Source of the DNA: a virus
Lineage: Duplodnaviria > Caudoviricetes
Strand: one strand, 5' to 3'
Length of the DNA stretch: 64,000 nt
IMG/VR virus record: IMGVR_UViG_3300030330_004772
Location: 1 to 64,000 of that record
In this document: positions 1 through 33,833 of the stretch, piece after piece
Layout: each line of letters begins with the position of its first letter
Numbering within the stretch: the first letter of the stretch is position 1
Notes under the pieces: generated by a model
Databases searched by the model: none
The model's input: the letters and a program-made list of their open reading frames with translations, nothing else
What the model was told of the DNA's origin: nothing
Program-made: the position numbers and the translations under genes

Positions 1-111
1 GATGGACAATGGTTTGAAAATGAAGAGGGTTATTCTATGTCCACTAAAAAACAAATGAGTCAAATGAGACCATGGAATCAGGGTGAAATAATTAAAACTA
101 ATAAAAATAAA
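1..111 (+). CDS. C-terminal fragment of a CDS running in from the window edge
   Basis: Frame 1 is open from base 1 (DGQWFENEEGY...TNKK) to TAA at 109-111; not in the ORF track. Confidence 0.55.
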
Positions 112-131
112 TTGTGGGATATTATTAGAGG

Positions 132-611
132 ATGAAAAAATTAATTAAAAAAATTTTAAAGGAAGAGTATAGTGAAAGAATTGAGGACTATAAAAAAATT
201 ATGTCTACACAATGGCAAGAATACTTCACTAACAAAAAAATATTACCTTCAATAATAAAATATTTAGATAGTATCATTAATATAGATATGATTGTTAAAT
301 CCGATAATTCCACAACGTATACCGTTTATTTTGACGATGTAGAACCTATCGCTAAAAATTATTGTTATGGGTGTAGTGGTACATTCCATTACCCTACAGG
401 TACACACGACATATATAATGTAGTACATGCGGAAGATAACGATCAATTTGTTAGTGCAGTTGAGTTAGCGATACTAGATATGTTCGGTGGTAAATCAAGT
501 GATATGGAATTTTATAGTATTATTTATCAATATTTATTTGATAAAATAAAAAAACATATGGATAATGATCCCATAAATGATTATCCTGAAGAACACGATA
601 TGGATTGGTAA
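132..611 (+). CDS. Hypothetical protein with MKKLIKKILKEE leader (putative internal head protein)
   Basis: 159-aa ORF; TAATG stop/start overlap with the next gene; leader shared with three neighbours. Confidence 0.8.
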   Translation: MKKLIKKILKEEYSERIEDYKKIMSTQWQEYFTNKKILPSIIKYLDSIINIDMIVKSDNSTTYTVYFDDVEPIAKNYCYGCSGTFHYPTGTHDIYNVVHAEDNDQFVSAVELAILDMFGGKSSDMEFYSIIYQYLFDKIKKHMDNDPINDYPEEHDMDW

Positions 612-1231
612 TGAAAAACCTTATTAGAAAAATATTAAAAGAGGAAACTGATGATTTAAGTAGAACAAAAAAAATCGATGCGTTAAATTCTATTGATTGG
701 ACAGGATATGGGGGAGTTATAGATTCTTTTGATGTTTTACAATACCATGGGGCATCTAATATGTTAGGGGAGATAACATTAGACAATTTAATCTTAACTA
801 GAAAACCCATTCAGTTAAAAGACTCTGGCAGATACGGATCTAGTAAGTCTGGTTGTATGGGATTTTATTTAACACCAAATAAAGGAGACTTGTTTAATCC
901 CAGTAAACGTATATATCCTAAAGCTTCATCTAAATACGCTTTTGAGAAAGCTTTTAAAAATGCAGACTATGTGGGAAGGGCAAATTCAAAAGCAATGATA
1001 TACGAAGTCATAATCGATCCAAATGCAATCATTGTAGATTATTATCCTGGTGGTTGTTTAGGTAAAGCATTTAGTAAAGGTCAACAGGACGCAGAACAGA
1101 TAATGTTAGATAATGCAGATGGTTTTTATGGTGCGGGCGAAATTGCAATAACAAATAAAAATGTTATAAAATCTATTACACTAATTGAGAGTGCATCGGT
1201 TGAAAATATAATGAGTAAATGGAGAAGTTAA
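611..1231 (+). CDS. ADP-ribosyltransferase-fold protein (H-Y-E type) with MKNLIRKILKEE leader
   Basis: Start moved to ATG 611 (TAATG overlap). Motifs YHGAS ... GFYLT ... KYA ... ADGFYGAGEIAITNKNVIK match the ART core pattern; recognised by eye. Confidence 0.6.
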   Translation: MKNLIRKILKEETDDLSRTKKIDALNSIDWTGYGGVIDSFDVLQYHGASNMLGEITLDNLILTRKPIQLKDSGRYGSSKSGCMGFYLTPNKGDLFNPSKRIYPKASSKYAFEKAFKNADYVGRANSKAMIYEVIIDPNAIIVDYYPGGCLGKAFSKGQQDAEQIMLDNADGFYGAGEIAITNKNVIKSITLIESASVENIMSKWRS

Positions 1232-2097
1232 TTAGGAAAATATTAAAAGAGGAGACACCAAACTTTAACAAGTTTGAATCGGGTGTATTTAAAATTATCG
1301 ATAAGGTTGGTATTGAAAAGTTTATTGGTGAGTATCTTAGAGATATGGGGCTAGATGTTGACGAAGAGGAAAATATTCTTTTTGAATACTTTAATGCGTA
1401 TGGTGGTGGATGTGATGACTATATTAATTTTGTATTAGAGGCAGAGGAAATTTCAAATATGTTTTACGATGGCGATTATGGTATACAAAATATGGTAAAA
1501 AGGTTTTTAGAAGATGATTATGATTATACGTATGATGGTTACGAATGTTATTATGACGAATATCAATTAGATGATATTAATGAAGAGAACATGAAAATCA
1601 TAATAAAAATATATAAATCACAAAAAGATGAAGATGAAACCTTAAGAGAATTTATTAAAAATGGTGATTTAGAAAGTGCGATTGGTTGTGCATATAGTGA
1701 CGCACAACAAAATGCCGATATAAATGCATTACATGAAGACTTTTTAGATGGGGTACATGAAGTAACCGATAAAATAGAGGGTAAATGGGATTGGGATACC
1801 CACACATTAAAAGGTAGAATATCGGTTTGTGAGATAATGAATCATGAAGACGCATTAGAGATACTATCAGAAAGTTTACAACACGGCTATGACTGGAATG
1901 AAGTCGTTAGTGCCATAGTTGAAAGGGAGTGGGAAGATGTTTGGAATGGTGATGAAGGAGATGTTTTATTCGGTGAACCAGTAACTATAGATGAGTATAG
2001 ACATTTCAGATATGGTGGTGCAGGAACAATAGATAAACAAGAATTTAATGAGTACTTATATAGTAGATTACATGATGAGTATAGATCTTTTATGTAA
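1219..2097 (+). CDS. Very acidic hypothetical protein with MEKLIRKILKEE leader
   Basis: 292-aa ORF, D/E/Y-rich, overlapping the previous stop. Confidence 0.8.
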   Translation: MEKLIRKILKEETPNFNKFESGVFKIIDKVGIEKFIGEYLRDMGLDVDEEENILFEYFNAYGGGCDDYINFVLEAEEISNMFYDGDYGIQNMVKRFLEDDYDYTYDGYECYYDEYQLDDINEENMKIIIKIYKSQKDEDETLREFIKNGDLESAIGCAYSDAQQNADINALHEDFLDGVHEVTDKIEGKWDWDTHTLKGRISVCEIMNHEDALEILSESLQHGYDWNEVVSAIVEREWEDVWNGDEGDVLFGEPVTIDEYRHFRYGGAGTIDKQEFNEYLYSRLHDEYRSFM

Positions 2098-2149
2098 TTA
2101 CACATATTTATTTATATATAAGACACTTATAATCTAAATTTTTTATAAT

Positions 2150-2269
2150 ATGAAAACAAGAAGAGGTTCTATTAGACTAACTGAACAAGACTTAGTAAAG
2201 TTGGTTAAGGATTTAAATGTTAAGACAAAGACTGTAAAATCTAAAGTTTTAGCAACAAGTTCAAAATAA
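2150..2269 (+). CDS. 39-aa basic micro-protein (MKTRRGSIRLTEQDLVKLVKD...)
   Basis: Read manually; ATATTTAT motif upstream (2104-2111); leader resembles those at 7822, 23650 and 24989. Confidence 0.6.
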   Translation: MKTRRGSIRLTEQDLVKLVKDLNVKTKTVKSKVLATSSK

Positions 2270-2353
2270 AAGATTATATCATATAATCAAAAATATTCAC
2301 TTTATTAATAAAAGTACGCAAAATTTTATCCACTTAACTCATATTTATATTAT

Positions 2354-3223
2354 ATGAAATCTCTCATCAGAAAAATACTTAAAGAAGAAACGCAACAAAG
2401 ATCACTAAGTGATGTAATATTTGATGATTTAGTTAGTACATTTAACGAAGAAGTATTAATTTATGATTGGGGTCCTGAATATAGTAATATGATTAAGGCA
2501 ATTAAGAATATTATTAATAATGCTGCCATACCACATATTGAGGATGTTTATAGTTTAGAGTATTTTGAAAATGAGGATTTAATTAAACCTATTTTAGATA
2601 AATTTGTTAGATATTTGTATAACGATGATTATCCATTGGTTGGGGACACCATTGAAATGATTGAAATGGATGGAGAAGATCCAAACCCAATACTACCAGG
2701 AACAAAGGGTGTAGTAACTAGAATAGAGTCACAAGTTATTTCAGGTATACCTGAAGAACATTTATGGATTAATTGGGAAAATGGTAGAACTTTAAAAGTT
2801 TTATTACCACATGATAAAATTAAAATAATCAAAAGAGGTGAAAGCAGTAGAGGTGTTATTGAACGATTAGAGTTAATGGAAGATAAAATAGATGATTTTG
2901 TTGATTTTGTAAGTGATGATTTAGAATTAGATGATAACTTTACCGTAGATATTACAAATGATTCTGACGATGTAGAAACATTGGCAAGTTACGATATTAA
3001 CAATAATGAAGTAACAGTATTAGGTAAAGATAGAGCTTTACCAGATATCATTCGTTCTGTTGCACATGAATTAGTTCACCATAAACAAAATGAGAGAGGT
3101 GAATTAACAGGTAGACAAGAAGAGGGTGAAGATGGTTCACCATGGGAAGATGAAGCCAATGCAAAAGCCGGAGAACTTGTTCGTAAATATGGTAGAGAGA
3201 ATCCTGAAATTTATGAAACGTAA
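2354..3223 (+). CDS. DUF4314-like domain plus zincin metallopeptidase-like domain, MKSLIRKILKEE leader
   Basis: GDTIEMIEM...PGTKGVV...INWENGRTL (DUF4314-like); HELVHHKQ (HExxH) with downstream EDEA third ligand. Confidence 0.65.
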   Translation: MKSLIRKILKEETQQRSLSDVIFDDLVSTFNEEVLIYDWGPEYSNMIKAIKNIINNAAIPHIEDVYSLEYFENEDLIKPILDKFVRYLYNDDYPLVGDTIEMIEMDGEDPNPILPGTKGVVTRIESQVISGIPEEHLWINWENGRTLKVLLPHDKIKIIKRGESSRGVIERLELMEDKIDDFVDFVSDDLELDDNFTVDITNDSDDVETLASYDINNNEVTVLGKDRALPDIIRSVAHELVHHKQNERGELTGRQEEGEDGSPWEDEANAKAGELVRKYGRENPEIYET

Positions 3224-3615
3224 ATAACGTCTCCTTTATTTATATTATTTTTATCACAAAAACCACCATTAACTTCTATGTTATATGACGATCCGTTCGG
3301 TGGATAAACGTTATCACCATCAGGTTCCGCAGTAACAATGTCTAAAATAGTACCATTACTATCACAAAAAATCATATCTAAGGGAAATTTTACACCCTGC
3401 ATATGATAATATGTGGGTGATATCTCATCGAATAATATACCACAATAATCACACATAGAATTCATCCCTAAAGCGCCTGTCATTTTTTGTTTATTTGTTT
3501 GTGCATATTCACACTCAATAGTAACATCATTATCATCACTATTTTTTATAACAACGTTTTTTTTATTTGGAAAGGGGTGTTTAACCATTTCATTTAAAAT
3601 ATCTATAAATTTCAT
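3211..3615 (-). CDS. DUF192-family protein
   Basis: Start moved to ATG 3615 (MKFIDILNE), right after an ATATTTAT motif. EYAQT...GA..., HMQGVKFPLDMIF, EVNGG...GD motifs. Confidence 0.7.
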   Translation of the reverse strand: MKFIDILNEMVKHPFPNKKNVVIKNSDDNDVTIECEYAQTNKQKMTGALGMNSMCDYCGILFDEISPTYYHMQGVKFPLDMIFCDSNGTILDIVTAEPDGDNVYPPNGSSYNIEVNGGFCDKNNINKGDVIYVS

Positions 3616-3676
3616 ACTAATAAATATTTGACATTTAAATAAAAGAAGATTATATTTAAATAAAAAAATTAAAGTA

Positions 3677-3871
3677 ATGCCAAAAAGTAAACATAGAAAA
3701 AACCAAAAACAAAAATCCAAAGCTAGAACCGAAAGATTAAAAACCCAAAAAAGATCTATGGAAAAGAAAATGCAAGAACAATTTATGAAATATATGGAAG
3801 ATATGAAAAATAGACAGATGGAGATTGAGGAGGTTGGCGATATTAATACATTTACTGGAGAAACAACTTAA
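3677..3871 (+). CDS. Small basic hypothetical protein (early)
   Basis: 64 aa, K/R-rich N-terminus; host-type promoter at 3627-3658. Confidence 0.7.
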   Translation: MPKSKHRKNQKQKSKARTERLKTQKRSMEKKMQEQFMKYMEDMKNRQMEIEEVGDINTFTGETT

Positions 3872-3882
3872 ATATTTATAAT

Positions 3883-4095
3883 ATGAATAAAGATTCTTAT
3901 ATGATAAAAAAGTGTTATAGAGATAACACAGGAAAAAACTTACATGTACTAATAACTGATGGTTACAGTCAAGTTTTAGAATTAACAACATTAAGTAAAG
4001 CAGAATATTTAGTAGGTTTATTAAATGAAAACACTGATAACGGTTGTAGATATGAAATAATAGTTATCAGTAATAATAAAAAAGTAAAAAAATAA
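3883..4095 (+). CDS. Hypothetical protein
   Basis: 70-aa ORF tightly packed in an operon. Confidence 0.65.
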   Translation: MNKDSYMIKKCYRDNTGKNLHVLITDGYSQVLELTTLSKAEYLVGLLNENTDNGCRYEIIVISNNKKVKK

Positions 4096-4097
4096 AA

Positions 4098-4310
4098 ATG
4101 AATAACGATCAAAAAGCAGAGTATTATCATAGTTTATTATTAAAACATGATAAATTAGATGGACAAGTTGCAGATATTAAGTCAGAGGCAGCAGGAATGA
4201 CATTAAATAAAGATCAATTAAAGAGAATTGATGAATTGGAAAGAAAAAAGGCTATATTAGTAGATGAAGCTCAAAAACTATTCCACACATACAAACCAAC
4301 TAAAGCATAA
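4098..4310 (+). CDS. Hypothetical coiled-coil protein
   Basis: 70-aa ORF, 2 bp after the previous stop. Confidence 0.65.
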   Translation: MNNDQKAEYYHSLLLKHDKLDGQVADIKSEAAGMTLNKDQLKRIDELERKKAILVDEAQKLFHTYKPTKA

Positions 4311-4316
4311 TTTAGG

Positions 4317-4739
4317 TTATTTTAACCTTTTTAACCTTCGTAAGGCGTTTCTCGACTCGTTAGTGATAGAAGAACCCTTACTTAGGTTCTCTTTGTATGG
4401 GATAAATCGTAAATTTTTAATATTACCCATCTTTTTAGGTGGTATTTTGTTATGAAAACCCAAAGAAATGGGATAAATATGGTCTAAATGATGATTTTTC
4501 CACCCTCTTTTATTAAAATTCTCTAAAATTTGTAGTGGTTGTTCTTCAGTAACCTCCCACACCATAGCATAATACAATTTTTTCTCTAAATTCTTAATAT
4601 TTTTGATTTTTTGTTTAATTTTTGGGTATTTTTTGGTTATTTTACGTATTTTATAGTAAATTTTACCTTTATTTTTAAGAATTTTATTTTTTACACTTGT
4701 TTTTTTACTATTTACAATTTTTTTAAGTGGTTTTTTCAT
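4317..4739 (-). CDS. HNH endonuclease-like protein with Lys-rich N-terminus
   Basis: HHLDHIYPIS...GNIKNLRFIP...ENLSKG matches an HNH core. Confidence 0.6.
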   Translation of the reverse strand: MKKPLKKIVNSKKTSVKNKILKNKGKIYYKIRKITKKYPKIKQKIKNIKNLEKKLYYAMVWEVTEEQPLQILENFNKRGWKNHHLDHIYPISLGFHNKIPPKKMGNIKNLRFIPYKENLSKGSSITNESRNALRRLKRLK

Positions 4740-4792
4740 AATTTATACTATTATTATTATATTTATAATTATAAATAATAAAAATTCATAAA

Positions 4793-5620
4793 ATGAAGGT
4801 ATATTTAACAGAAAAACAGTTAAAAAAGTTAGTTATTAACGAAGAAACTTTAGGTAATATACAAAAAGACTATATTTCTTTGAATGATATTTGGTATGGT
4901 TTCGATAAACTGTATCATGGGGATTTTCAGAGTAGTGACGATGGACCATTACACCTAGTACAACAAAAATTATTTAAAAAATTCCCTGAATACGCAGAAG
5001 AAATAAATTTTCGTCCAGATAAAGATTTTGGGGATAAAACATCTAAAATGATTGGTAAATTATTTGGTGTAAAATTTAAGAACTTAAAATCTGTTTCTAT
5101 CGGACCAAAAACACTAGAAAAATTAGGTTTTAAAAGACCACCCTCTTTAACATTAGAGGAATTGATATTGGTACTTAATTTTGTTATGGAAGAATCTGAA
5201 AATAAAGAGTCAGACATTAAAGGGATTGCTAATGTGATTTTAAATAGGAGTAAAGCAGGAAGAGGTAGTGTAGTAGATGTGGTTTTAGAACCCAGTCAAT
5301 TCTCAGGATGGAACAAACACCAACCAGTTAGTCGTAATAAAGAAACTATGAGGAATATTATGTTGAATAGACCTAAGGATGACAGGTATCAAAATAGAAA
5401 ATCTTGGGAATTAGCGGTTAAATACGCAAAACTACTTTTAAATGGTGGTAATATTTCTGATAATACTAAAGGTGCAACACATTATTATAACCCAAATAAA
5501 ATAGAACCACCATGGGGACAAGAAAGTAAAACTTGGATACCTCACCCACCTAAAGGTTTAGATCATATCTTTGGTAGGGATACAACAACTAAATGGTCCA
5601 AAAATTTTACTGGAAGATAA
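4793..5620 (+). CDS. SleB/Hydrolase_2-family cell-wall hydrolase with PG-binding-like segment and MKVYLTEKQLKKLVINEE leader
   Basis: E...GIANVILNR...VVLEPSQFSGWN...DNTKGATHYYNP...PPW pattern; LVQQKL...DKDFGDKT resembles PG_binding_1. Confidence 0.8.
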   Translation: MKVYLTEKQLKKLVINEETLGNIQKDYISLNDIWYGFDKLYHGDFQSSDDGPLHLVQQKLFKKFPEYAEEINFRPDKDFGDKTSKMIGKLFGVKFKNLKSVSIGPKTLEKLGFKRPPSLTLEELILVLNFVMEESENKESDIKGIANVILNRSKAGRGSVVDVVLEPSQFSGWNKHQPVSRNKETMRNIMLNRPKDDRYQNRKSWELAVKYAKLLLNGGNISDNTKGATHYYNPNKIEPPWGQESKTWIPHPPKGLDHIFGRDTTTKWSKNFTGR

Positions 5621-5877
5621 TGGGTGAAGAATTAGAACATATCTATAAAGTATTTGTGTTTGAACAAATTAAAGGTGCGAGAACAGAAATAAAAAGAAAA
5701 TGGATAAATTATGATAACATATTAGACGAATTATATATGTTAAATGAAAAAACTTTAATTGATGAAATTAAATATAGAATTACTGACAAAGAAGACGATA
5801 AAAAAGTTTTTAAAGATGCCCTATCAAAAGTAGAAAAAAAAAGTAATAGGTTAGATTTGTTAATTAAATCAATTTAA
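5620..5877 (+). CDS. Hypothetical protein
   Basis: Start moved to ATG 5620 (TAATG overlap with the hydrolase gene). Confidence 0.7.
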   Translation: MGEELEHIYKVFVFEQIKGARTEIKRKWINYDNILDELYMLNEKTLIDEIKYRITDKEDDKKVFKDALSKVEKKSNRLDLLIKSI

Positions 5878-5904
5878 GATATATTTATATAAAAAGATTA
5901 TAAA

Positions 5905-7551
5905 ATGAAATACGTAATTAGTGAAAATCAATATACTATTCTATTAAGGGAAGATAGAATAGATTTTTTAAAAAATCAGTTCGTAATAGATCCAAAATTA
6001 TTGGATAGATCGACAAATGGTGAAAACGATGAAGAAGAATTTGAAGATGGTGATAGACCTGCTGGTGGGATGAAAAAATCTAAAGAAAAAGTAGAACCAA
6101 TACAGGGTCATGATGGTTTAGATATTGCATATATAGTAACAAATAAAAAAGGCAAAAGTAAAGTAGTTTTAACAGATGAAATCTTTACTGATATAGTAGA
6201 TGCAGATCCAACTAGGAAAAAAGAATTTGTACAGTGGATGATTACGGTATTTATGAGACATCTAAAAGAAGGAGATATTGAACAAGCAATTAGATTTATA
6301 ACCGAAGATTTACCTGAGGCAAATGAATTTTTAACTGTCTTTGATAGGGTAAGAAAGAAAAAATCATTTAAAAGAGACGCGTCTAATAGGGCAAATGCAC
6401 CTGAAAATGTAGCCGATATCACCCAATACAATGATTTAGCACAATTATATGATGTAGTTAGTCCATTTATGGGAGATGATTCCGAAGATAATTCCTTATG
6501 GAATAAACTAAAGAAGCATATTGATTTAGGTACTGCTAAATTAGCATATAGAGATAATGATGTATTAGTATACATGCCACAAACATTAGAAGCTAGTTGT
6601 GAACCATTGGGTGGTGGTATGGCATCTTGGTGTACGGCTAACCGTAATGCATTAAATAGTAATCATGATAGTTCTTATTTTGCTAGATATAGAAGAAATA
6701 ACCCTAAACCAGATGGTAGTTTGTCAGATTACTATGTGGTAATGCCTAAGAAGTTATTTGATGGTGAAAACGAAGATATATACCCACTACAGTTTCATTT
6801 TGAGTCTGGACAATTACACGATAGGAGTAATAGAAGTATTGAAAGGGGCGAATTACCAAACATACTTTCTAGATTTCCGAAGTTAACTGAATTTTTTAGA
6901 AAAGAATTAGGGGCATTAGCAACAGGTGATATTAAAAATGGTTCAGGATTAATGAATAGTAAATACTTAACTTACTTAACTAAGTTTGGAGGTAACATTA
7001 AAGATGTAATTGATGACGAAATATGGGATGCAGGTGTCCAGTCAATACGTAAATTGGCAAGTGAACAAAAAGGTGCATTACAAAACAACAAATATTTAAA
7101 GTGGTTAATGGAAAACACTGAAGGTGTAGAAATTACTGATTATCTTAATAAAGATATGGCGACTTTAGACTTTAGTGATATGGACTTAAAAGTTTTTCCA
7201 GATGTTTCAGAATTTACAAAAGCAGAAAGAATATCTTGTAATAATTGTGGATTAAAGAGATTACCATCTACAGAACATTTACCTGATAATATAGAAGTAT
7301 TAACTATGAAAAATAACCAAATATCTGAAGCACCTTTAGATGGATACGGAAAATTTAAAAATATGTTCGTAATTAATTTACAGGAAAACCCAATAACTAA
7401 AGTTAATATAGAACCACTAAATCAATTAGTGAATGAAAGATTAGCGAGATTTGTTGGATCTATTGATGTGGATAAGTTATCACCTGAAAACCAAAAAGAG
7501 TGGAATACGTTTTTAGAGGATCCTAATAATATAGGATATTTAGTTGCTTAA
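5905..7551 (+). CDS. Large protein with C-terminal leucine-rich repeats and MKYVISENQYTILLRED leader
   Basis: About four LRR-like units (LDFSDMDLKVFP, ISCNNCGLKRLP, LTMKNNQISEAP, INLQENPITKV); central SWCTA...LQFHFESGQ..D..N segment. Confidence 0.7.
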   Translation: MKYVISENQYTILLREDRIDFLKNQFVIDPKLLDRSTNGENDEEEFEDGDRPAGGMKKSKEKVEPIQGHDGLDIAYIVTNKKGKSKVVLTDEIFTDIVDADPTRKKEFVQWMITVFMRHLKEGDIEQAIRFITEDLPEANEFLTVFDRVRKKKSFKRDASNRANAPENVADITQYNDLAQLYDVVSPFMGDDSEDNSLWNKLKKHIDLGTAKLAYRDNDVLVYMPQTLEASCEPLGGGMASWCTANRNALNSNHDSSYFARYRRNNPKPDGSLSDYYVVMPKKLFDGENEDIYPLQFHFESGQLHDRSNRSIERGELPNILSRFPKLTEFFRKELGALATGDIKNGSGLMNSKYLTYLTKFGGNIKDVIDDEIWDAGVQSIRKLASEQKGALQNNKYLKWLMENTEGVEITDYLNKDMATLDFSDMDLKVFPDVSEFTKAERISCNNCGLKRLPSTEHLPDNIEVLTMKNNQISEAPLDGYGKFKNMFVINLQENPITKVNIEPLNQLVNERLARFVGSIDVDKLSPENQKEWNTFLEDPNNIGYLVA

Positions 7552-7595
7552 TTTGAGTTTGTAATTATTTATTCTTATATTTATAAAAAATAGAT

Positions 7596-7751
7596 ATGGG
7601 AAAATATATTTTAACACATAAAGAAACTGAAGAAGTTATACACACACATCAGTCACATAGTTTAGAACTAGCCATTATTTATTTCGCAGCAATTAAAAAT
7701 TTAAGTGAAATAGATTTAATTAAAATCTATAACGTTATAAAAACAAAGTAA
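7596..7751 (+). CDS. 51-aa hypothetical protein
   Basis: Read manually (MGKYILTHKE...IKTK); ATATTTAT at 7577-7584. Confidence 0.55.
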   Translation: MGKYILTHKETEEVIHTHQSHSLELAIIYFAAIKNLSEIDLIKIYNVIKTK

Positions 7752-7821
7752 AATTTAATTTTTTTTATTTTATTAGTATATTTATAGTATATAATAACAT
7801 ATATTGTAAAAATATTAAGAC

Positions 7822-7956
7822 ATGTCAAATAAAAAAACAGTAAGATTAACAGAATCTGAGATGGTTACTTTAATCGAAAACATTGTAAATCAAGTTAAAT
7901 CTGAAAAGAAAAGAAAAATAAACGAGTCTAAGAGAAGAGTTGCTCGTAGAAGGTAA
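7822..7956 (+). CDS. 44-aa micro-protein: leader plus Arg-rich tail (...KINESKRRVARRR)
   Basis: Read manually; ATATTTAT at 7778-7785; VRLTESEMVTLIE leader. Confidence 0.65.
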   Translation: MSNKKTVRLTESEMVTLIENIVNQVKSEKKRKINESKRRVARRR

Positions 7957-7966
7957 TTCTTTTAAT

Positions 7967-9568
7967 ATGAAATCATTAACTGAAGAACAGAAACGTATGA
8001 GAGAACTTATGGGATTTACCTATAAGGATAATTCACATGATATATTATCGGAACAAAATATGGATTTACTTTTAGAGGGTAAATTAAAAGGTAGAGGTGA
8101 TACAAGAACAGGTATTGCGAATTTTACTGCTTATAGTCAGGAAGTTGCATACTTTAAAAATATAAAGATGTTCGATGATTTTAGAAGAGGTCAAAGATTT
8201 GAAATTACTAGCCATAGGGATAATACTGCAGGACCTACACAACAAAATATGATAATTGATCCCCCAAAACCTAAACCTGAGCCTATTGACGTAATAGAAG
8301 AAGAACCAATTAGTATTAATATACCATTTAGTGTAGATGATCCATTTCAATTTGATGATGATGTGTTATATACTGAAGCAGAAAATAAATTAAATAAATT
8401 TATTTCTGATGTTAACAATTTAAGAGAAAATAAATTATATGACTCAAAAGTTATAGACGCATATTATGAATTTTTAAAATCTAAACCTATTTCAGTTTTT
8501 GGTTACGCATCTATAGACGCATTATCAAACTATAAAATAACTGGTAGTGACAACACATCTTGTGGTGGTAAAGAAAGGCTTAGACATGACTATAATAAGT
8601 GTTTATCTAAAGTTAGAGCAGAAGCAATTATAGAAAAATTAAAAGCTAGTGATGGTATATTAAGTGAATTAAATTATATTGCAAAAGGAATGGGTGAAAC
8701 TAATAAATTTAGTGGTAAAAAATGGAATAATAATGTGGCAGATCCCACAACAGACAAAAATTCACCATTCACTACGAAAGATACTAAAAAAGATAGAAAA
8801 TTTAGTGTTGTTTTACCTACTTTCACATACGAAGAACCTGCACCGCCCACACCAGAACCCATTGATGATACATATCCAGGATGGGTAGAACCTAGAATTA
8901 CTCTATATAATCCTGAAGCATTAAAAGTGTTACATAGTGATCCAGACTACTCCCAAAGAGATGAAAGGGGACAATATAAGGATGAGAACATTCAGAATAT
9001 AAACACAATTTCTTTAATGGATAATAAGTGTATTACATTTGATGAAACAATAGAAAATAAACAACACCCACATAAATTAAAAGATGGTAGAGTGGTCTAC
9101 CCATTGAAGGGGGATTTGCGAATTATGTCTCCTGATGAATGTTACAAAAATAAATTTGATATAGGTTCTTTTTTAGGAATAGGTAAAAAAATTATTGGTT
9201 GTACTGTTGATCAAAACAGTAAAAATTTATTATTTAGAGAATCACAATTAGATCATGTCTTAGGTAAAGGCTGGATGGAAAAATATTTTTTCCCATTCTG
9301 GGTATTTGAGACGGGGAAATACCCAATGGAAATATCTAAAAAAGAAATAACCGTTTATGATAACTCTAATACGGCATATACATTTCCTTATAAATCAGAT
9401 AATTTATTATATGGTAATGTTTCTACACCAAAAAAATGGATTGCAAGACCCTTTGGAAGTAACCAAATCATTATAAATAATAGGGGATGGTATACCATTA
9501 AGAAACAAGAAAATTATTCAATACAAGACGATGGTAATAATGGTCAATTTCCATTTGGTGGGGGGTAA
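7967..9568 (+). CDS. Protein with degenerate OmpA/MotB C-terminal-like domain, MKSLTEEQKRMRELMG leader
   Basis: Start moved to ATG 7967. FQFDDDVL...GYAS...NKCLSKVRAEAI...AKGMGET...DRKF follows the OmpA_C pattern. Confidence 0.6.
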   Translation: MKSLTEEQKRMRELMGFTYKDNSHDILSEQNMDLLLEGKLKGRGDTRTGIANFTAYSQEVAYFKNIKMFDDFRRGQRFEITSHRDNTAGPTQQNMIIDPPKPKPEPIDVIEEEPISINIPFSVDDPFQFDDDVLYTEAENKLNKFISDVNNLRENKLYDSKVIDAYYEFLKSKPISVFGYASIDALSNYKITGSDNTSCGGKERLRHDYNKCLSKVRAEAIIEKLKASDGILSELNYIAKGMGETNKFSGKKWNNNVADPTTDKNSPFTTKDTKKDRKFSVVLPTFTYEEPAPPTPEPIDDTYPGWVEPRITLYNPEALKVLHSDPDYSQRDERGQYKDENIQNINTISLMDNKCITFDETIENKQHPHKLKDGRVVYPLKGDLRIMSPDECYKNKFDIGSFLGIGKKIIGCTVDQNSKNLLFRESQLDHVLGKGWMEKYFFPFWVFETGKYPMEISKKEITVYDNSNTAYTFPYKSDNLLYGNVSTPKKWIARPFGSNQIIINNRGWYTIKKQENYSIQDDGNNGQFPFGGG

Positions 9569-10204
9569 TTAATAAATAAAATTGATAAATGCCCAATGTT
9601 TGCCATGTGCATATCTAACACAACAGGCAACTTGACTTTTCATTTCCACTTTATCAACACCCCAAGTCCTATACTCATAGGTATCAAATAAATTAGATCT
9701 TTGTGTTCCTTTATGCATTGATGAACTCTCCCATATTTTAATCATATGTGATGCCATTTCTTGATACGTATCAAATTTCTTATTGGTTTTTAACCCATTC
9801 TCCATATAATGGAGATTATCAGGTATATCAAAACCGGTTTCATATTTTATATATACATCTTCACTAAAAGGTTTTTTATTTTTTAAATCATACCACCAGT
9901 CTACTCTATCCACATGATGTAGTCTATTTTGTCTAACATTTTCTTCGGTATTAGGTTTAGATATCAATTCATACACTCTGTCGGACCAGTATAATTTTCT
10001 TTTTTCTTTGTAGTTAGGTATATCTTTTAATACCTCAGATATTAAATCACCAGTAACATAATATTGGATAGTGTCTCTAAAGTGTTGGAATGTTTCAAAT
10101 AATACCTCTTCTGCTCTCTTACTATCAAAGTTATTATAGTCTATTGGTTGACTATAACTGTTTAAGGCTACTAATACTAATAATAATGTGATTAACTTTT
10201 TCAT
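9569..10204 (-). CDS. Secreted CAP/SCP-like domain protein
   Basis: ATG 10204; signal peptide MKKLITLLLVLVALNSYSQ; C-terminal IWESSSMHKG...VACCVRY resembles CAP W..S..H. Confidence 0.55.
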   Translation of the reverse strand: MKKLITLLLVLVALNSYSQPIDYNNFDSKRAEEVLFETFQHFRDTIQYYVTGDLISEVLKDIPNYKEKRKLYWSDRVYELISKPNTEENVRQNRLHHVDRVDWWYDLKNKKPFSEDVYIKYETGFDIPDNLHYMENGLKTNKKFDTYQEMASHMIKIWESSSMHKGTQRSNLFDTYEYRTWGVDKVEMKSQVACCVRYAHGKHWAFINFIY

Positions 10205-10305: not shown

Positions 10306-11535
10306 ATGAAAAAAATAAAAACATTAAACGAAGAAATAAAAAGAATAAAATCCCTTTTTCACTATGAAGAAGGTTCTACTATTCTTGAAACTATAGACAT
10401 TTATGAACAAGATGAACAAAATGAACTAGGTTTATTAGGTCCCCCAAACTGCAATGTATCCGAAGAAATTAACCATATTGGTGAATTTAGTGCAACAAAA
10501 TCAGATGCAACTAAACCATTTACAGATTTTATAACTAAGATGAAGACACAAATTGATGGTAATGCAAAATTAAAGAAGTTGATTGATGAGGGTGGTAAAG
10601 TTTTTATTAGTGAATTAACTGTTATGGGTGGTGCTAGTAATCATTATAATAAAAAAGCAACTGCTGCAGATGTAGAAAATGATTATAAAACACCATACGC
10701 TGGTAATATTAAACAGGATTCAGGTTATAAAGCCAATCGTGGATATGCGAAAAGTAGGGCGTTGAATTTAGTAAATGCAATGGTTAAGAAATTACCTGAA
10801 ATGGGAGTTAAAGTAGCTGAGGAAGTATTAGAAAATGCCAAAAACAATATAGACGTTAAAGTTATCAACACAGGAGGTAAAAATGATAGTAGTAGTACTG
10901 CAAAAAATCCTGGTCAGATTGTTAAAATTTATATGAAAATTTGTGGTGAAGGTGGTGATCCAGATATTCTAAAGTGTTTTGAGTCTGCAACTATTAGGGT
11001 AGATTATGATAGTAATAGTCCTGATCAGACACATGTTTGTAATCATGCAGTTTATGATATTTACGCCAATGGGGTTAAATTAGAAAGAACCGATGGTGTG
11101 TCATATGCTAGTTTAAATAATGATTATAGACAATCGACAAATTTTAAACCACAAAAAATATCAAATGATGGAAACAATAAGGGTGGTGCTTATGTTTATA
11201 ACGAATTTAAATTAACTATGGATGGTGTAAACAAAGAATTTTTTAATGAGGAAAATTTATATAAATATAATGGTGGTTTAGTTGTTAGTGCTAAATGTGT
11301 GAGGACAAGTCACGGTTCATGGGCAAATAACAGTGATTGTCACGAATGGGTGGGAGACATTAAATTATCGACTTCAGACGGGGTAGAAACAGTAGAAGTA
11401 GGACAAACTGATCTTTCAGGAACTGGATTAAAATTTAGTACACCTAATAATTTTGACGCGATAGTACCACTTGCAGGATTTGAGGCTTGTAAAGATTTGG
11501 CAAATAACAATGATAAACCAGTGGGGGATCAATAA
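10306..11535 (+). CDS. Protein with highly degenerate OmpA-like segment, MKKIKTLNEEIKRIKSLF leader
   Basis: Start moved to ATG 10306, after ATATTTAT at 10281. MGGAS...NRGYAKSRALNL...GQIVKI segment; Cys/His-containing C-terminal domain. Confidence 0.55.
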   Translation: MKKIKTLNEEIKRIKSLFHYEEGSTILETIDIYEQDEQNELGLLGPPNCNVSEEINHIGEFSATKSDATKPFTDFITKMKTQIDGNAKLKKLIDEGGKVFISELTVMGGASNHYNKKATAADVENDYKTPYAGNIKQDSGYKANRGYAKSRALNLVNAMVKKLPEMGVKVAEEVLENAKNNIDVKVINTGGKNDSSSTAKNPGQIVKIYMKICGEGGDPDILKCFESATIRVDYDSNSPDQTHVCNHAVYDIYANGVKLERTDGVSYASLNNDYRQSTNFKPQKISNDGNNKGGAYVYNEFKLTMDGVNKEFFNEENLYKYNGGLVVSAKCVRTSHGSWANNSDCHEWVGDIKLSTSDGVETVEVGQTDLSGTGLKFSTPNNFDAIVPLAGFEACKDLANNNDKPVGDQ

Positions 11536-12197
11536 TTATAGTGTATCTTGATTATTGCTTTATCTAATTCACTTAATTCAGATAAATCGTTATAGTGTTC
11601 ATAAAATATACTATTTTTATAATCGTATGAATCAGCTATAAGACCAAAACATTGGGTTATCTCCTCATACATCACATGTTTAGTTCTTTTTTGTGATTCA
11701 GTATTTTCTAAATTAATAAACGCTTCGGCTTGATAAATATAACCACTCCAACCAGGAACCCAATTCAAACCGTTACATAAATGATAATAATTTTTAATAG
11801 TTCTATTACCACTATATTCCATATAACCTTCACCAGAACCGAAATAAACCAATATGTCACAACCTTTTCTTTCGGAAACTAATTTCACCTCAATAGAATC
11901 TAATAATTCATTCATTGTCTTTACGTATTGAGTAATATCATTCATAATACTATCAGAAACATCTCCCACAATAAAAATATCTACATCGTGTAACCATTTT
12001 TTGGGTCTTACTCTTTTGGTTGGGTATTTAAAAGAACTCCTATAATTTGTAATTTGATAATAATAGTGTAATACTGAATCAGGATATTCGTAATTAGTTT
12101 TAACCCTTAAACGTTCTATAATAGAATCTGGATAAGTTTTCTGTGAATACCCATTTAGGGTTACTAATACTAATAATAATGTGATTAACTTTTTCAT
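11529..12197 (-). CDS. Secreted DUF2927-like metallopeptidase-fold protein
   Basis: ATG 12197; signal peptide MKKLITLLLVLVTLNGYSQ; YEEITQCFGLIAD...SIF...LSELDKAII motif. Confidence 0.65.
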   Translation of the reverse strand: MKKLITLLLVLVTLNGYSQKTYPDSIIERLRVKTNYEYPDSVLHYYYQITNYRSSFKYPTKRVRPKKWLHDVDIFIVGDVSDSIMNDITQYVKTMNELLDSIEVKLVSERKGCDILVYFGSGEGYMEYSGNRTIKNYYHLCNGLNWVPGWSGYIYQAEAFINLENTESQKRTKHVMYEEITQCFGLIADSYDYKNSIFYEHYNDLSELSELDKAIIKIHYNY

Positions 12198-12260: not shown

Positions 12261-14729
12261 TTATATAACCTTAACGTCTATCTTTTCTTTTACCTTACTA
12301 TATGACACCATAATAGTTTGTCCTTCTTTAATATTATCTTTTAATATTTCTTCAGATATTGGGTCTTCAATGTATTTTTGTATTGCCCTATTAAGTGGTC
12401 TAGCACCGTATTCTTCATCATAACCTATATCACTTAGGAAGTCTTTGGCGGATTTTAATATTTTCAAACCAAAACCTAATTCTTTAATACGTTGTGTTAT
12501 ACTAACAACTTCTAAATCTACAATCTTTTTAATTTCATCTGATTTAAGTGAATTAAATATTACCACATCATCTAGTCTATTTAAAAATTCTGGTGGGAAA
12601 TGTTTCTTTAATTCTTTATTTAGAAAATTAGACTTCTCTTGATCTTTATTTTTCTCTAAACTTTTTGTACTGAAACCAACACCGCTACCGAACTCTTGTA
12701 GTTTTTTAATTCCTACATTTGATGTCATAATAACCATACAGTTTTTAAAGTTAACTTTTCTACCTAAACTATCTGTTAATTGTCCATCATCCAACAATTG
12801 TAATAAAACATTGTAGATATCTTTATGTGCTTTCTCAATCTCATCAAATAGAATTATTGAATATGGTTTTCTTCTTACTTTTTCTGTAAGTTGTCCACCT
12901 TCTTCATGACCTACATATCCCGGAGGTGCACCTACCATTCTAGATAATGCGTGTTTCTCTTGATATTCTGACATATCAATTCTTATTAGTGAATCCTCAT
13001 CACCAAACATATATTGTGCAAGTTTTTTGGCTAAGTGTGTTTTACCTGTACCTGTAGGTCCTAAGAACATAAATGTACCAATAGGTTTTTTAGGGTTTCT
13101 GATACCCACTCTATTTCTTCTTAATGATTTAGCAATTTTAACTACCGCATCATTTTGTCCTATAACACTACCTTTCATTTCTTTTTCCATCCCTAACAAT
13201 CTCTTACCTTCATCATTGGTAAGTCTTTTTAGTGGTATACCAGTCATAGTAGCAACTACTTCACTTACATCTTCCGGATTAATTACAGTTCTCTTTTTAT
13301 CTAAACTATTTTTCCACTCTTCTTTTTTAGCGTCTAGTTTATCTATAACCTGTCTTTCCTTATCACGTAGTTTTGCTGCCTCTTCATATTTTTGACTTCT
13401 CACTACTCTATTTTTTTCCTCTTTAATGGATATGATCTCTTGCTCTAAATCACTAATAATTTTAGGTGGTTTTGCATTAACTTGAGATCTAGCACCAACC
13501 TCATCCATAATATCAATCGCTTTATCAGGAAATTCTCTATCTGTAACATAACGATCCGCCAGTTTAACACATTGAATTATAGTATCTTCTAAATAAGTAA
13601 CTTTATGGTACTTTTCATATGAAGATTTTATTTTCTCTAAAATTTCTATGGTTTCATTTATTGAAGGAGGTTCAATTACTACCTGTTGAAATCTTCTTGT
13701 TAATGCACCATCTTTTTCAATATGTTCTCTAAACTCATCTAGTGTAGTTGCACCTATTATCTGTATATCTCCTCTGGATAAAGCAGGTTTTAAAACATTT
13801 GCAGCATCCATTGAACCGGATGCATTACCTGCACCCACTAAAGTATGTAATTCATCGATAAATAAAATAATATTATCTGTATCCACTAATTCATCTACCA
13901 AACCTTTTATTCGTTCTTCAAACTGACCTCTATATTTAGTACCAGCAACTAATGAAGTTAAATCTAAAGAAATTAATCTTTTATCTAATAATGTTCTTGG
14001 TGCATCACCCTCATTTATTTTTAATGCTAACCCCTCAATAACTGTAGTTTTACCAACTCCTGGATCACCAATTAAAACAGGATTATTTTTTTTCTTTCTA
14101 GACAATATTTGTGCAACTCTCTGAATTACATCATCCCTACCAATTACAGGATCAATTTTACCTTCTGACGCTTTTTTAGTTACATCCACAGAAAAGTTAT
14201 CTAATATAGGTGTATTAGAATTTTTGTTTTTCTTTTTTGGTGGTCTATTACTAAACATATTTTCTTCTTCATCCATAGAATCAAAAGAATTATCGATAAG
14301 ATGTTTTTTAACTGTTTTATTATATTCTTTATAATTTGCTCCCATTTTCTCCAATATTTTACTTATTTTATTTTTTTCTTTAAGTATAGATAACATTATA
14401 TGTGCAGTATTAAGATATAGCTCTTTTAATTTATCACATTCTATTTCCGCTTCTGCAATAATTTTTTTAGTGTACTCAGACATAGGTAATAACGAAACAT
14501 TTATAACACTATCATCTTCAGTTGGGGAATATACTATTTTCTCAACTTTACTATGAAATTTATTTATATCTACACCTAACTCTATTAGATACTTAATTGC
14601 TTCGTTATCATAATCATTAATTAGTGCAATAACTATGTGTTCAATATTTATTTCCATATCACCATATAGTTTAGCTTCCTCAATAGATTTATTTATGATT
14701 TTTTTTACTTTTGGTTGTACTTTTTTCAT
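12261..14729 (-). CDS. clpC: ClpC-type AAA+ unfoldase (Clp_N, two AAA modules, UVR middle domain)
   Basis: Walker A GDPGVGKT and GPTGTGKT; Walker B FIDELH and FDEIEK; UVR-like SQKYEEAAKLRDKE; ClpP-docking-like GVGF loop. Confidence 0.92.
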   Translation of the reverse strand: MKKVQPKVKKIINKSIEEAKLYGDMEINIEHIVIALINDYDNEAIKYLIELGVDINKFHSKVEKIVYSPTEDDSVINVSLLPMSEYTKKIIAEAEIECDKLKELYLNTAHIMLSILKEKNKISKILEKMGANYKEYNKTVKKHLIDNSFDSMDEEENMFSNRPPKKKNKNSNTPILDNFSVDVTKKASEGKIDPVIGRDDVIQRVAQILSRKKKNNPVLIGDPGVGKTTVIEGLALKINEGDAPRTLLDKRLISLDLTSLVAGTKYRGQFEERIKGLVDELVDTDNIILFIDELHTLVGAGNASGSMDAANVLKPALSRGDIQIIGATTLDEFREHIEKDGALTRRFQQVVIEPPSINETIEILEKIKSSYEKYHKVTYLEDTIIQCVKLADRYVTDREFPDKAIDIMDEVGARSQVNAKPPKIISDLEQEIISIKEEKNRVVRSQKYEEAAKLRDKERQVIDKLDAKKEEWKNSLDKKRTVINPEDVSEVVATMTGIPLKRLTNDEGKRLLGMEKEMKGSVIGQNDAVVKIAKSLRRNRVGIRNPKKPIGTFMFLGPTGTGKTHLAKKLAQYMFGDEDSLIRIDMSEYQEKHALSRMVGAPPGYVGHEEGGQLTEKVRRKPYSIILFDEIEKAHKDIYNVLLQLLDDGQLTDSLGRKVNFKNCMVIMTSNVGIKKLQEFGSGVGFSTKSLEKNKDQEKSNFLNKELKKHFPPEFLNRLDDVVIFNSLKSDEIKKIVDLEVVSITQRIKELGFGLKILKSAKDFLSDIGYDEEYGARPLNRAIQKYIEDPISEEILKDNIKEGQTIMVSYSKVKEKIDVKVI

Positions 14730-23649: not shown

Positions 23650-24978
23650 ATGAAAATTAAATTAACAGAATCACAACTGAAAAGAGTTTTAAATGAAATG
23701 CGTTTTGATGGTAAATCTACCGGTTTATTTTCAGAAGAAGAACATATAGACGAAGGTAGAAAGAAAAGAAGAAAAAAACGTAAATCAAGAAAACGTAAAT
23801 CTACAAGAAGTAAATCTAAGAAAAAGAAAAATACATTATGCGCTAGAGGTAAGAGTGCTGCTAAGGCTAAGTTTGATGTTTACCCATCTGCTTATGCTAA
23901 CGGGTATGCAGTTCAAGTGTGTAAAGGTAAAATAAAAGGTTTAGATGGTACTAAAAAATGTAGTGGAAGTTACTGTAGAGGAAAAAAAAATGAATCTTAC
24001 GAAATAGGTGAGGTAGAAGTTGTAGAAAGGTTAGACGAAGATTTAGCCGTATGGTTCGGTACAAAAAAAAAGAAAAAAGGGGGTAAACAACCACAAGGAC
24101 CATGGGTAAACATATGTAGAAAAAAGAAAGGTGGTGGACACCCTACATGTGGGAGAAGTGATTCAGATAAAGGAGGTTATCCCGTATGTAGAGCAAAAAG
24201 TGTTGCGGCTAATATGTCACAATCTGCAAAAGATTCAGCATGTAGACGTAAAAGAGAAAAAGAAAAGAATGATGGTAAATCGGGTAAAGGACAATCCCCT
24301 AGCCCAATTAAAGTAAAAAATTACAAACCAAGAAAAAGAAAAACTTCTAAGAGAAAATCTAAAAAGAATGAATCAGTAAACATCAACAGAATGATGATTA
24401 CTGAAAACAGAACAATTGTTAGTGAAGGATTAAGATATCATTTAGATAATCAAATACCTTTATCAGAAAACATTTATAGATACGGTAGTGAATCTTTTTT
24501 TAATTTAATTAATGAAGTAAGAAAATTACATAGTAGTAATAAAGTTAATTTATCTTATTTAGATGAAGAATTACTTAAAACAGATATTGGTAGGAAAGCA
24601 GTATTTGAGGGTAAAGAAGTTTGGTTAGATATCCCAATGGAAGACAATGAAATTTTAACTGAAGCAAAATTTAGAGGTAAGACAGTAAAGACTAATTCTC
24701 CACAAAGAAGTTCTTCTGGTGGTAAAGCATATAGAGTATATGTAAGTGGATGTGTTAATAAAACCAAATCCAACCCATCTGGAGTAAAACAAATTAGATT
24801 TGGTTCTGGTGGATTAAAGGCTAAGTTAAGTAATAAAGATGCTAAGAAATCTTACAACGCTAGACACGGTTGTTCTAAAGGTAGACATAACGATAAATGT
24901 AAGGCAGGATATTGGTCTTGTAGGTTACCAAGATACGCCAAGAAATTAGGTTTATCTGGTGGTGGAACATGGTGGTAA
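23650..24978 (+). CDS. Multi-module, very basic Cys-containing protein with MKIKLTESQLKRVLNE leader
   Basis: RKKRRKKRKSRKRKS tract; modules KFDVYPSAYANGY, WVNIC...CGR...YPVCR and RFG...ARHGC...YWSC. Confidence 0.75.
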   Translation: MKIKLTESQLKRVLNEMRFDGKSTGLFSEEEHIDEGRKKRRKKRKSRKRKSTRSKSKKKKNTLCARGKSAAKAKFDVYPSAYANGYAVQVCKGKIKGLDGTKKCSGSYCRGKKNESYEIGEVEVVERLDEDLAVWFGTKKKKKGGKQPQGPWVNICRKKKGGGHPTCGRSDSDKGGYPVCRAKSVAANMSQSAKDSACRRKREKEKNDGKSGKGQSPSPIKVKNYKPRKRKTSKRKSKKNESVNINRMMITENRTIVSEGLRYHLDNQIPLSENIYRYGSESFFNLINEVRKLHSSNKVNLSYLDEELLKTDIGRKAVFEGKEVWLDIPMEDNEILTEAKFRGKTVKTNSPQRSSSGGKAYRVYVSGCVNKTKSNPSGVKQIRFGSGGLKAKLSNKDAKKSYNARHGCSKGRHNDKCKAGYWSCRLPRYAKKLGLSGGGTWW

Positions 24979-24988
24979 AAAAAAAGAT

Positions 24989-25255
24989 ATGAAAAAGATA
25001 AAATTAACAGAAAAAGATTTATTGAGGATAGTTAAGGAAACTATCAAAGAAGATAGGAAAACTGAAAATTATATGTTTTTTAGTAATCTTAAACAAATGA
25101 GAAGACAGATTGATATGATGTTGGAAAATTTAAATCCTCATTGGGTAGATTCAACATTGGCAGATGGGCACGACTGGGCAGATGATAAGATAAGTGAATC
25201 TAAAACAAATATTGATAGTGTATTCGATTTCTTCATGAATAAAAAAGAAGAGTAA
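24989..25255 (+). CDS. Small protein with MKKIKLTEKDLLRIVKETIKE leader
   Basis: Start moved to ATG 24989. Confidence 0.75.
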   Translation: MKKIKLTEKDLLRIVKETIKEDRKTENYMFFSNLKQMRRQIDMMLENLNPHWVDSTLADGHDWADDKISESKTNIDSVFDFFMNKKEE

Positions 25256-33146: not shown

Positions 33147-33833
33147 ATGGAAATATTAAAAAACAATGACTTAAATAAAAAAGGTATACTAGTAGAATAT
33201 GATGCTGGTTATATATCACCTAAAGATAACAGACACTTTATTAACGAAATAAATAAACTAACTAAAGGAGAGCAGATTATTGAAGATCCTTTAGTTGTTT
33301 ATGCAGTTATGCAAAAATATGGTGTTGAGAATAGAAACGGTAGAGTATATCCTGAAGATATTCTAAAAAGAGAGGGTGAAAATTATACAAAACTAATAAA
33401 AGAAAAAAGAGCAATGGGTGAAGCGGATCATCCAGAATCTTCTATAGTAGCAATAAGTAGGATATCCCACAATGTCATAGATTTATGGTGGGAAGGAAAT
33501 GTAATGATGGGGAAATTAGAAATAATTATGTCACCAGGATTTATAACACAAGGAATTATTTCATGCGAAGGAGACCAAGTGGCGAATTTATTACGTAAAG
33601 GTTTAAAGATTGGTGTATCATCTAGAGGTGTAGGTTCACTAAAAAAAGAAAGCGGCAAAAACGTAGTACAAGATGACTTCGAATTAATTTGTTGGGACGT
33701 TGTTACGTCCCCGTCAACTCCCGGTTCTTGGATATATAATGAAGAGCCTAGTAGAGAACAACAAATGTCAGAATCTAAAAAATCTGATAAGACTTTATTA
33801 GTAGACGGATTAAATAATTTTTTGTCTGATTAA
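33147..33833 (+). CDS. Prohead maturation protease (T4 gp21-like)
   Basis: NRNGRVYP, MGEADHP (catalytic His), GVSSRGVGSL (catalytic Ser), DVVTSPSTP. Confidence 0.93.
   Translation: MEILKNNDLNKKGILVEYDAGYISPKDNRHFINEINKLTKGEQIIEDPLVVYAVMQKYGVENRNGRVYPEDILKREGENYTKLIKEKRAMGEADHPESSIVAISRISHNVIDLWWEGNVMMGKLEIIMSPGFITQGIISCEGDQVANLLRKGLKIGVSSRGVGSLKKESGKNVVQDDFELICWDVVTSPSTPGSWIYNEEPSREQQMSESKKSDKTLLVDGLNNFLSD

Follow-up and report, generated by a model that had tools for sequence, protein, structure and literature searches.

Four neighbouring genes near the start of a 64,000-nucleotide stretch of viral DNA encode proteins that open with almost the same twelve residues, MKxLI(K/R)KILKEE, and then diverge, and we propose that this N-terminal segment, here called the class A leader, is probably a lineage-specific analogue of the capsid targeting sequence (CTS) of phage T4 that is cut after the glutamate at position 11. 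The stretch, referred to throughout as the window, comprises the first 64 kb of the 74,685-bp IMG/VR record IMGVR_UViG_3300030330_004772 (CheckV completeness 23%); it has a GC content of 29% and comes from an uncultured clade of T4-like phages with a genome of roughly 300 kb. A preliminary description of this DNA had proposed that selection acts on the peptide as a transferable tag through which new genes are recruited into the virion, an interpretation that is, overall, partly supported by the analysis presented here.

The leader opens the open reading frames (ORFs) that start at positions 132, 611, 1219 and 2354 on the plus strand, and the four 36-nt segments encoding it are located exactly at 132-167, 611-646, 1219-1254 and 2354-2389. 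When the window is searched with the peptide back-translated in degenerate form, these four sites and no others come up, against none in 100 dinucleotide-preserving shuffles. Pairs of leaders have 10 or 11 of the 12 residues in common but only 23 to 29 of the 36 bases, with three to six synonymous codon differences, and the non-synonymous differences are confined to positions 2, 3 and 6. After residue 12 the best pairwise BLASTP match between the bodies has an E value of 0.44, and their Pfam content differs, the only Pfam domain among the four genes being DUF4314 in gene 4. The leader is nevertheless retained in orthologues of all four genes. The earlier account of four nearly identical N-termini, written in different synonymous codons and attached to diverging bodies, is thus confirmed at the level of the strings themselves; the bodies are not homologous to each other, and the leader is kept where orthologues can be compared.

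A scan of IMG/VR with a degenerate class A pattern recovered at least 119 loci. Among the matches listed, all 149 open an ORF, with the upstream frame closing within a few codons, and in the 1.14 Mb of loci listed 170 of 171 six-frame occurrences of the eight-residue core follow M-x-x-x; the single exception, too, lies at an N-terminus, preceded by a start that is slightly longer. Among the matches listed, 148 tagged proteins (144 from IMG/VR loci plus the four window proteins) reach 60 residues or more, and these range from 88 to 552 residues in length and fall into at least 45 unrelated BLASTP body clusters, with Pfam matches to Phage_lysozyme, to GP88 together with L5_gp82, weakly to the Acb1/2H phosphoesterase family, and to DUF4314 accompanied by an HExxH domain. 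Across 185,579 bacterial and archaeal species, each represented by one genome, the class A pattern has a single match, which is a phage contig, and no cellular match. Simple paralogy, by which the four genes would be diverged duplicates with a conserved N-terminus, might be suspected from their tandem arrangement, and some tagged families elsewhere are indeed true tandem paralogues; but the best body E value of 0.44, the differing lengths and domains, the distinct Pfam folds among the 45 or more body clusters and the existence of leaderless homologues make it extremely improbable.

Conservation of the leader is seen in the peptide far more than in the DNA. Among the matches listed, 118 unique tagged genes use 90 distinct 36-nt versions of the leader; every degenerate position varies synonymously, and Leu4 is encoded by all six of its codons. 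The statement that the leader is not a DNA repeat was therefore largely right, though there is some codon bias, with ATA used at Ile8 in 86% of cases against a background of 34% and TTA at Leu9 in 88% against 55%. For orthologue pairs of genes 1, 3 and 4 from three syntenic relatives, the pooled ratio of non-synonymous to synonymous differences (pN/pS) is 0.115 in the leader and 0.36 in the bodies, and the pooled pS of 0.29 in the leader is not below the 0.18 of the body, values that are indicative only since the pairs are not independent and some leaders were chosen by the search pattern. Within the gene 4 family, 22 representatives with less than 90% mutual identity have a mean pairwise identity of 0.89 in the leader and 0.74 in the body. 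Selection thus acts on the peptide, as had been claimed.

Genes may also come and go at the leaders. Genes 1 to 3 are translationally coupled via overlapping stops and starts, and gene 2 (611-1231, plus strand, 206 residues, leader at 611-646) is absent from the syntenic relatives L003, L032 and L054, in which the gene 3 orthologue directly adjoins that of gene 1; gene 2 is a cassette-like insertion bounded by leaders. Its homologues keep the leader in six of six clusters, with I5, R6, I8, L9, E11 and E12 invariant. In comparisons of gene 3 with its orthologues the leader has a pS of 0.71-0.75 and the body a pS of 0.07-0.20, and this contrast, taken with the gene 2 insertion, suggests that recombination may occur at the leaders. 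One could go further and suppose that the conservation is mainly a feature of the nucleic acid or of translation initiation, either the boundary of a mobile 5' cassette, made up of promoter and first codons, through which genes are shuffled, or an A-rich unstructured start suited to nearly leaderless mRNAs, with the peptide as a by-product. Such a view draws on the leader-bounded insertion at 611-1231, on a gene 3 leader pS of 0.75 against 0.09 in the body, on the bias of codons 7-9 toward AAA ATA TTA, and on the tight spacing of a TATTTAT box, which in 30 of the 42 class A genes that have one starts 12-14 nt ahead of the ATG. We consider it very unlikely, however, given 90 DNA versions of one peptide, synonymous variation at every degenerate position including the six codons of Leu4, and a leader pN/pS of 0.115 with pS at least at the level of the body; recombination at leaders can, moreover, coexist with a function at the protein level.

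A second stereotyped N-terminus of the type M-K-I-I-I-T-E-x-Q, the class B leader, is present in the window and in the loci recovered from IMG/VR. A scan for it yielded at least 120 loci, partly on the same contigs as class A, with bodies in at least 30 clusters; it continues into a conserved helix, often with a second (I/L)-x-E near residues 16-17. At least nine body families mix leaders, being headed in different members by class A, class B, a longer third variant or no leader, these nine being BLAST clusters that hold both class A and class B members, and the two classes appear to be interchangeable. Together with the 45 or more unrelated body clusters and the insertion at 611-1231, these mixed families bear out the earlier claim that the tag is transferable. 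The third leader has two extra N-terminal residues (M-N-L-Q/K-E-x-I-R-R/K-I-L-R/K-E-E; loci L047, L078, L021, L115 and L017) and precedes additional body families, of which some are homologues of class A bodies.

What the leader might do is suggested by the positions at which it tolerates change. In 81 leader variants, collected with no position fixed, I5 is changed once, I8 three times, L9 twice and E11 four times, whereas position 10 (P2) has 33 changes, spread over eight residues, and position 12 (P1') has 28. The four variants with E11Q all have the sequence ILLQE, such that L-x-E is restored one residue later. As far as sequence can tell, this pattern is the signature of an (I/L)-x-E site, presumably a cleavage site, plus a hydrophobic docking face. 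The window encodes a T4-type head module with a terminase, a portal, an S77 protease, an acidic scaffold candidate and a gp23-type capsid protein. The prohead protease of T4 gp21 type (33147-33833, plus strand; Peptidase_S77, PF03420, E 3.3e-23), which is our proposed leader-cutting enzyme, has 30% identity with T4 gp21 in an alignment that matches up the His, Ser and Asp blocks, and H95, S158/S159 and D184 are invariant across 11 relatives, the His-Ser-Asp triad being intact. In the major capsid protein (35328-37076, plus strand; PF07068, E 4.4e-72), L58-N59-E60 (nt 35499-35507) aligns with the LTE65 cleavage site of T4 gp23, and E60 is invariant in five clade members and T4; the capsid maturation cut is predicted to follow these three residues. 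With L-N-E60 lying on the T4 cut site and its glutamate invariant, the protease probably keeps an (L/I)-x-E specificity.

These observations could also be accommodated if the leader were a propeptide removed by the protease rather than a targeting signal, with other features loading the proteins into the head, or with the propeptide keeping enzymes inactive until maturation. The conservation pattern does show a cleavage-site-like unit more directly than it shows docking, and several of the hydrolase bodies (lysozyme, cell-wall hydrolase, HExxH domain) might need masking; but I5 and I8 lie upstream of P3-P1 and are equally conserved, as a docking face predicts, the bodies have no other common targeting feature, and in T4 ten residues serve both functions (PMC9026906). 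We therefore regard a propeptide without a targeting role as unlikely.

The structural model of gene 4 computed with AlphaFold2 (AF2), which has a mean predicted local distance difference test (pLDDT) score of 78, places leader residues 2-12 in a low-confidence helix, parted from the fold by a five-residue coil, after which come a confident helical N-domain, the DUF4314 beta domain and the HExxH domain in that order. A detached helix of this kind might serve to dock onto a membrane or onto a partner unrelated to the capsid, for example by placing early or late effectors at the inner membrane or at a different phage assembly, and the basic-hydrophobic pattern of residues 1-10 resembles that of bacterial membrane-targeting helices. 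Neither the nearly invariant Glu11 with its compensatory ILLQE variants, nor the exchange with a class B leader that is not basic and has only (I/L)-x-E in common with class A, is explained in this way, and we think such a role improbable.

In the capsid-targeting reading that we favour, the leader would form a short N-terminal amphipathic helix, with M1, L4, I5, I8 and L9 on a hydrophobic face and K2, R/K6, K7 and K10 on a basic face, and, while the head is being assembled, would dock the tagged protein to the core of the prohead. Next, the S77 prohead protease of gp21 type would cleave the protein behind Glu11, with Leu9 at P3 and Glu11 at P1, and the mature protein would stay inside the head to be ejected along with the DNA; core binding, cleavage after E11, presence in the virion and ejection are the steps that we infer. 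Since a tag of this kind is autonomous and placed at the very start of the protein, its acquisition would be enough to recruit any gene, and this would in turn account for its presence at the head of many unrelated families with fast turnover. Recruitment into the virion, as the preliminary description had it, is the best explanation, and it fits the presence of a T4-type protease, the aligned site in the capsid protein and the conservation of (I/L)-x-E.

The distribution of the protease is consistent with this proposal. Of the 20 largest tagged contigs, 13 have S77, and these same 13 have Gp23; S77 is found in 14 of 49 further tagged records, for a total of 27 of 69, where the summed completeness leads one to expect about 20 of 69, given a single copy per genome and fragments drawn at random from a genome of about 300 kb. 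Six of seven records that are at least 70% complete contain S77. Several points nonetheless weigh against the proposal. One tagged record, 71% complete, has no S77 match. Codons 7-9 are more uniform than background, which may reflect some constraint at the DNA level or recent copying, and a TATTTAT box precedes class A genes only slightly more often than other genes (38% and 29%). The leader and the T4 CTS are not similar in sequence, and the leader is basic, whereas the T4 CTS has a net charge of about -1, so that the docking partner could differ. Finally, a strict pattern picks out about 11 leader genes in a 98%-complete relative of 295 kb, and ten of these fall in one 18-kb region that lies 65-85 kb from the head module; since the internal protein (IP) genes of T4 are likewise distant from its head module, this separation helps neither way.

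A quite different possibility is that the leader is recognized by another phage enzyme or chaperone, such as a ClpC-like AAA+ protein or a modifying enzyme of the kind that acts on ribosomally synthesized and post-translationally modified peptides (RiPPs). A ClpC-type AAA+ unfoldase that is conserved within the clade is encoded in the window (12261-14729, minus strand), with Clp_N, AAA, UVR motif, AAA_2 and ClpB_D2-small regions that include two AAA domains, and the 98%-complete relative has a copy with 58% identity. Nothing links this protein to the tag, however, which to our knowledge fits no class of Clp N-degron, and each untagged family is found beside tagged genes in at most about 10 of 120 loci, with no sign of a linked maturase. 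The match of the leader to the capsid cleavage motif would, moreover, have to be a coincidence, and we judge recognition of this sort to be very improbable.

The preliminary description had also pointed to two further occurrences of ILKE, at the C-terminus of the portal and inside ORF 18934. Both are present, the first spanning residues 653-656 of the portal and the second being located at residue 406 of ORF 18934, and ILKE occurs six times in the window outside the leaders where about one occurrence is expected from composition; the count is the highest among the 24 permutations of these letters (the next being 4 and then 3), a modest excess. The portal C-terminus of G002, the 98%-complete relative, has no ILKEE. 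With conservation lacking in G002 and the excess modest, we do not include the portal and ORF 18934 sites in the tag system.

The four class A genes are otherwise dissimilar. Gene 1 (132-611, plus strand, 159 residues) has its leader in codons 1-12, and its start codon overlaps the stop codon of the preceding ORF; the leader is retained, with K10R or K10S, by the orthologues in L003, L054 and L032, and no Pfam or PHROG family was matched. Searches of genes 1 to 3 against Pfam, PHROGs and PDB profiles gave nothing. An Alt-like ADP-ribosyltransferase identity was considered for gene 2 on the strength of an Atlas ART-PolyVal cluster at rank 17 (score 0.90), a lead only, and was set aside because other tools give it no support; the AF2 model of gene 2 (pLDDT 38) is unusable. 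Gene 3 (1219-2097, plus strand, 292 residues, acidic) begins with its leader at 1219-1254 and overlaps the end of gene 2 by 13 nt. Gene 4 (2354-3223, plus strand, 289 residues) has its leader at 2354-2389, followed by a helical N-domain, DUF4314 at residues 92-159 and a C-terminal HExxH domain. More than 100 homologues of gene 4 have the leader, and homologues of its domains without the leader also exist, as in Synechococcus phage S-SRM01. A Foldseek search with the gene 4 model gave no match at E <= 0.001; its HExxH domain bears a weak Foldseek likeness to the minimal metallopeptidases selecase, abylysin and jannalysin, a lead only.

Upstream of gene 1, positions 1-135 (plus strand) probably belong to a fifth class A gene, of which the window includes just the 3' end and which is assigned from position only; in L003, L032 and L054 a class A gene of 175 residues lies directly upstream of the gene 1 orthologue. 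The 256-nt spacer before gene 4 holds a basic micro-ORF of 39 residues between genes 3 and 4 (2150-2269, plus strand), with a class B-like start I-R-L-T-E and a length below the 40-residue threshold of the ORF list, and a TATTTAT box (2342-2348, plus strand) that is located 12 nt before the gene 4 ATG. TATTTAT is found also 21-34 nt before terL, the portal gene, ORF 31520, the protease gene and ORF 37170, and is a candidate late-type promoter element; if it does act as one, the class A genes with the box 12-14 nt before the ATG would be expressed from nearly leaderless mRNAs. Five genes of the window are assigned to class B or are class B-like, all on the plus strand: 4793-5620, whose body is a Hydrolase_2 (SleB-type) cell-wall hydrolase; 5905-7551 (548 residues); 23650-24978 (442 residues), which adjoins the head module; the class B-like gene 24989-25255 (88 residues), whose body family has a class A leader in six other contigs; and 26770-27612 (280 residues), immediately upstream of terL.

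The head module itself begins with the large terminase gene terL (27654-29447) and continues with the portal of T4 gp20 type (29500-31479, plus strand; PF07230, E 1.6e-75), the C-terminus of which reads ILKEEEK. Between portal and protease, in the position of T4 gp67/gp68, is an ORF at 31520-32287 (plus strand) with ILTE at residues 14-17 and ILKE at residues 36-39; family searches gave no match to it, and from its position it would be a core protein. Downstream of the protease, an ORF encoding a very acidic product of 447 residues (33948-35291, plus strand) likewise has no match in family searches; its position, which is that of T4 gp22, and its composition suggest that it may be the scaffold and possibly the docking partner of the basic leader. 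The protease and its relatives L125-L135 have a conserved G-I-L-V/I-E site close to the N-terminus, near residue 17, which is analogous to LIE-9 of T4 gp21, a candidate autocleavage site (PMC9026906). This site, like the ILTE and ILKE of the ORF at 31520-32287, is a further point of contact with the T4 model. In G018, G035 and G042 (loci L137 and L138) the S77 match lies inside an open frame of 632 residues, and another, weakly S77-like stretch precedes it by about 1.1 kb in that frame; this may be a fused or duplicated protease.

The phages of this clade are distant from those in culture: window positions 1-8000 have no blastn match among 50,697 phage records, and the closest cultured matches to the capsid protein and terminase have about 28-43% identity. 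The one match in the survey of cellular genomes, QCKH01000009.1 (63,985 bp; L124 / L032), is a close phage relative that forms a whole contig in the Prochlorococcus single-cell assembly AG-409-L21. We treat this host link as a lead only because psbA was not found in five related records; the window has no tRNA. Two paralogous ORFs of the window, at 9569-10204 and 11529-12197 (both minus strand), have nearly identical, hydrophobic, signal-peptide-like N-termini ending in Y-S-Q, a style of signal peptide common in Bacteroidota, which is a second hint as to host and conflicts with Prochlorococcus.

Among the tagged bodies, a family resembling 2H phosphoesterases, with an H-x-T motif, matches the Acb1 Pfam model at 20.4 bits, below the 27-bit cut-off. 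It has both class A tagged forms (L016, L042, L053, L086 and L101) and leaderless forms (L048 and L056), the leaderless proteins being 168 residues long and starting a few residues before the conserved fold, and it is a candidate for a pre-packaged counter-defence enzyme. More broadly, we hold it a real possibility, though one that stops short of being probable, that this aquatic clade uses two interchangeable N-terminal labels to fill its capsids with a large array of unrelated, quickly exchanged proteins that are injected together with the DNA; in the 45 or more class A and 30 or more class B body clusters, this cargo would include lysozymes, cell-wall hydrolases, the HExxH peptidase-like protein and the 2H/Acb1-like phosphoesterase. 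If so, the tag would make it possible to draw up, from sequence alone, an inventory of what unculturable phages inject. Confirmation would allow a 12-residue motif to flag candidate ejected proteins, possible counter-defence enzymes among them, in metagenomes, and would offer a second, orthogonal packaging tag for the engineering of T4-type capsids.

Full-text literature searches with the leader strings returned no relevant paper. The leader was considered as a Sec or Tat signal peptide or a signal-arrest-release (SAR) anchor, and these were rejected because five or six of its 12 residues are charged and it has no hydrophobic core of about ten or more uncharged residues. The T4 CTS is the textbook route by which accessory proteins are loaded into a phage head, among them the anti-restriction protein IPI* and the ADP-ribosyltransferase Alt, and reviews already propose that it lets T4-like phages recruit new cargo. 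In the T4 genome (NC_000866), IPII and IPIII have a common 10-residue tag that ends I-A-E, while the propeptides of gp24 and Alt close with L-R-E at residue 10 and I-T-E at residue 6, respectively; the CTS, present on IPI as well, is removed by the prohead protease gp21. For packaging, ten residues of IPIII are enough (PMC9026906, PMC3012670), with residues 4 and 7 of the CTS governing targeting and residues 8 and 10 processing (PMC9026906), and the IPs are diverse defence proteins with only the CTS in common (PMC9026906, PMC3012670).

The class A leader resembles the T4 CTS in being a tag of 10-12 residues at the extreme N-terminus of unrelated, fast-evolving proteins (PMC9026906, PMC3012670), in ending with the (I/L)-x-E that is also the cleavage motif of the major capsid protein, in occurring alongside a gp21-type S77 protease, and in heading genes that lie away from the head module, as do the separate IP loci of T4. 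It differs in being one residue longer and basic, where the tag of T4 is slightly acidic, and in heading at least 45 body clusters as against the three IPs of T4; and with only the initial M-K and the terminal hydrophobic-x-E in common with IPII and IPIII, it is better described as an analogue than as a homologue. Class B leaders, with I/L-T/S-E at residue 7, match the form of the six-residue propeptide of Alt, an enzyme that is cleaved at ITE-6, packaged in the T4 head and ejected (PMC5694885), but unlike the propeptides of Alt and gp24 they run on into a conserved helix and head at least 30 body clusters. The phages phiKZ, 201phi2-1 and SPN3US are also jumbo phages with many head-loaded proteins trimmed after a glutamate at a short motif, and their head and ejection propeptides are cut by S80 proteases at (S/A/G)-x-E, with SPN3US paralogues sharing identical N-terminal propeptides (PMC5694885); the protease family and the P3 preference are different, however, and those propeptides are long and diverse rather than one stereotyped 12-mer. 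RiPP-like leaders offer a further parallel, in that one short conserved N-terminal tag precedes many unrelated small proteins, but the class A genes have no linked enzyme family, and their conserved unit matches the motif of the head protease. The proposed system would thus follow the same logic as the T4 CTS, a principle that is not in itself new, but would apply it through an unrelated tag and to a far larger and more varied cargo, in jumbo phages that are known only from uncultured material.

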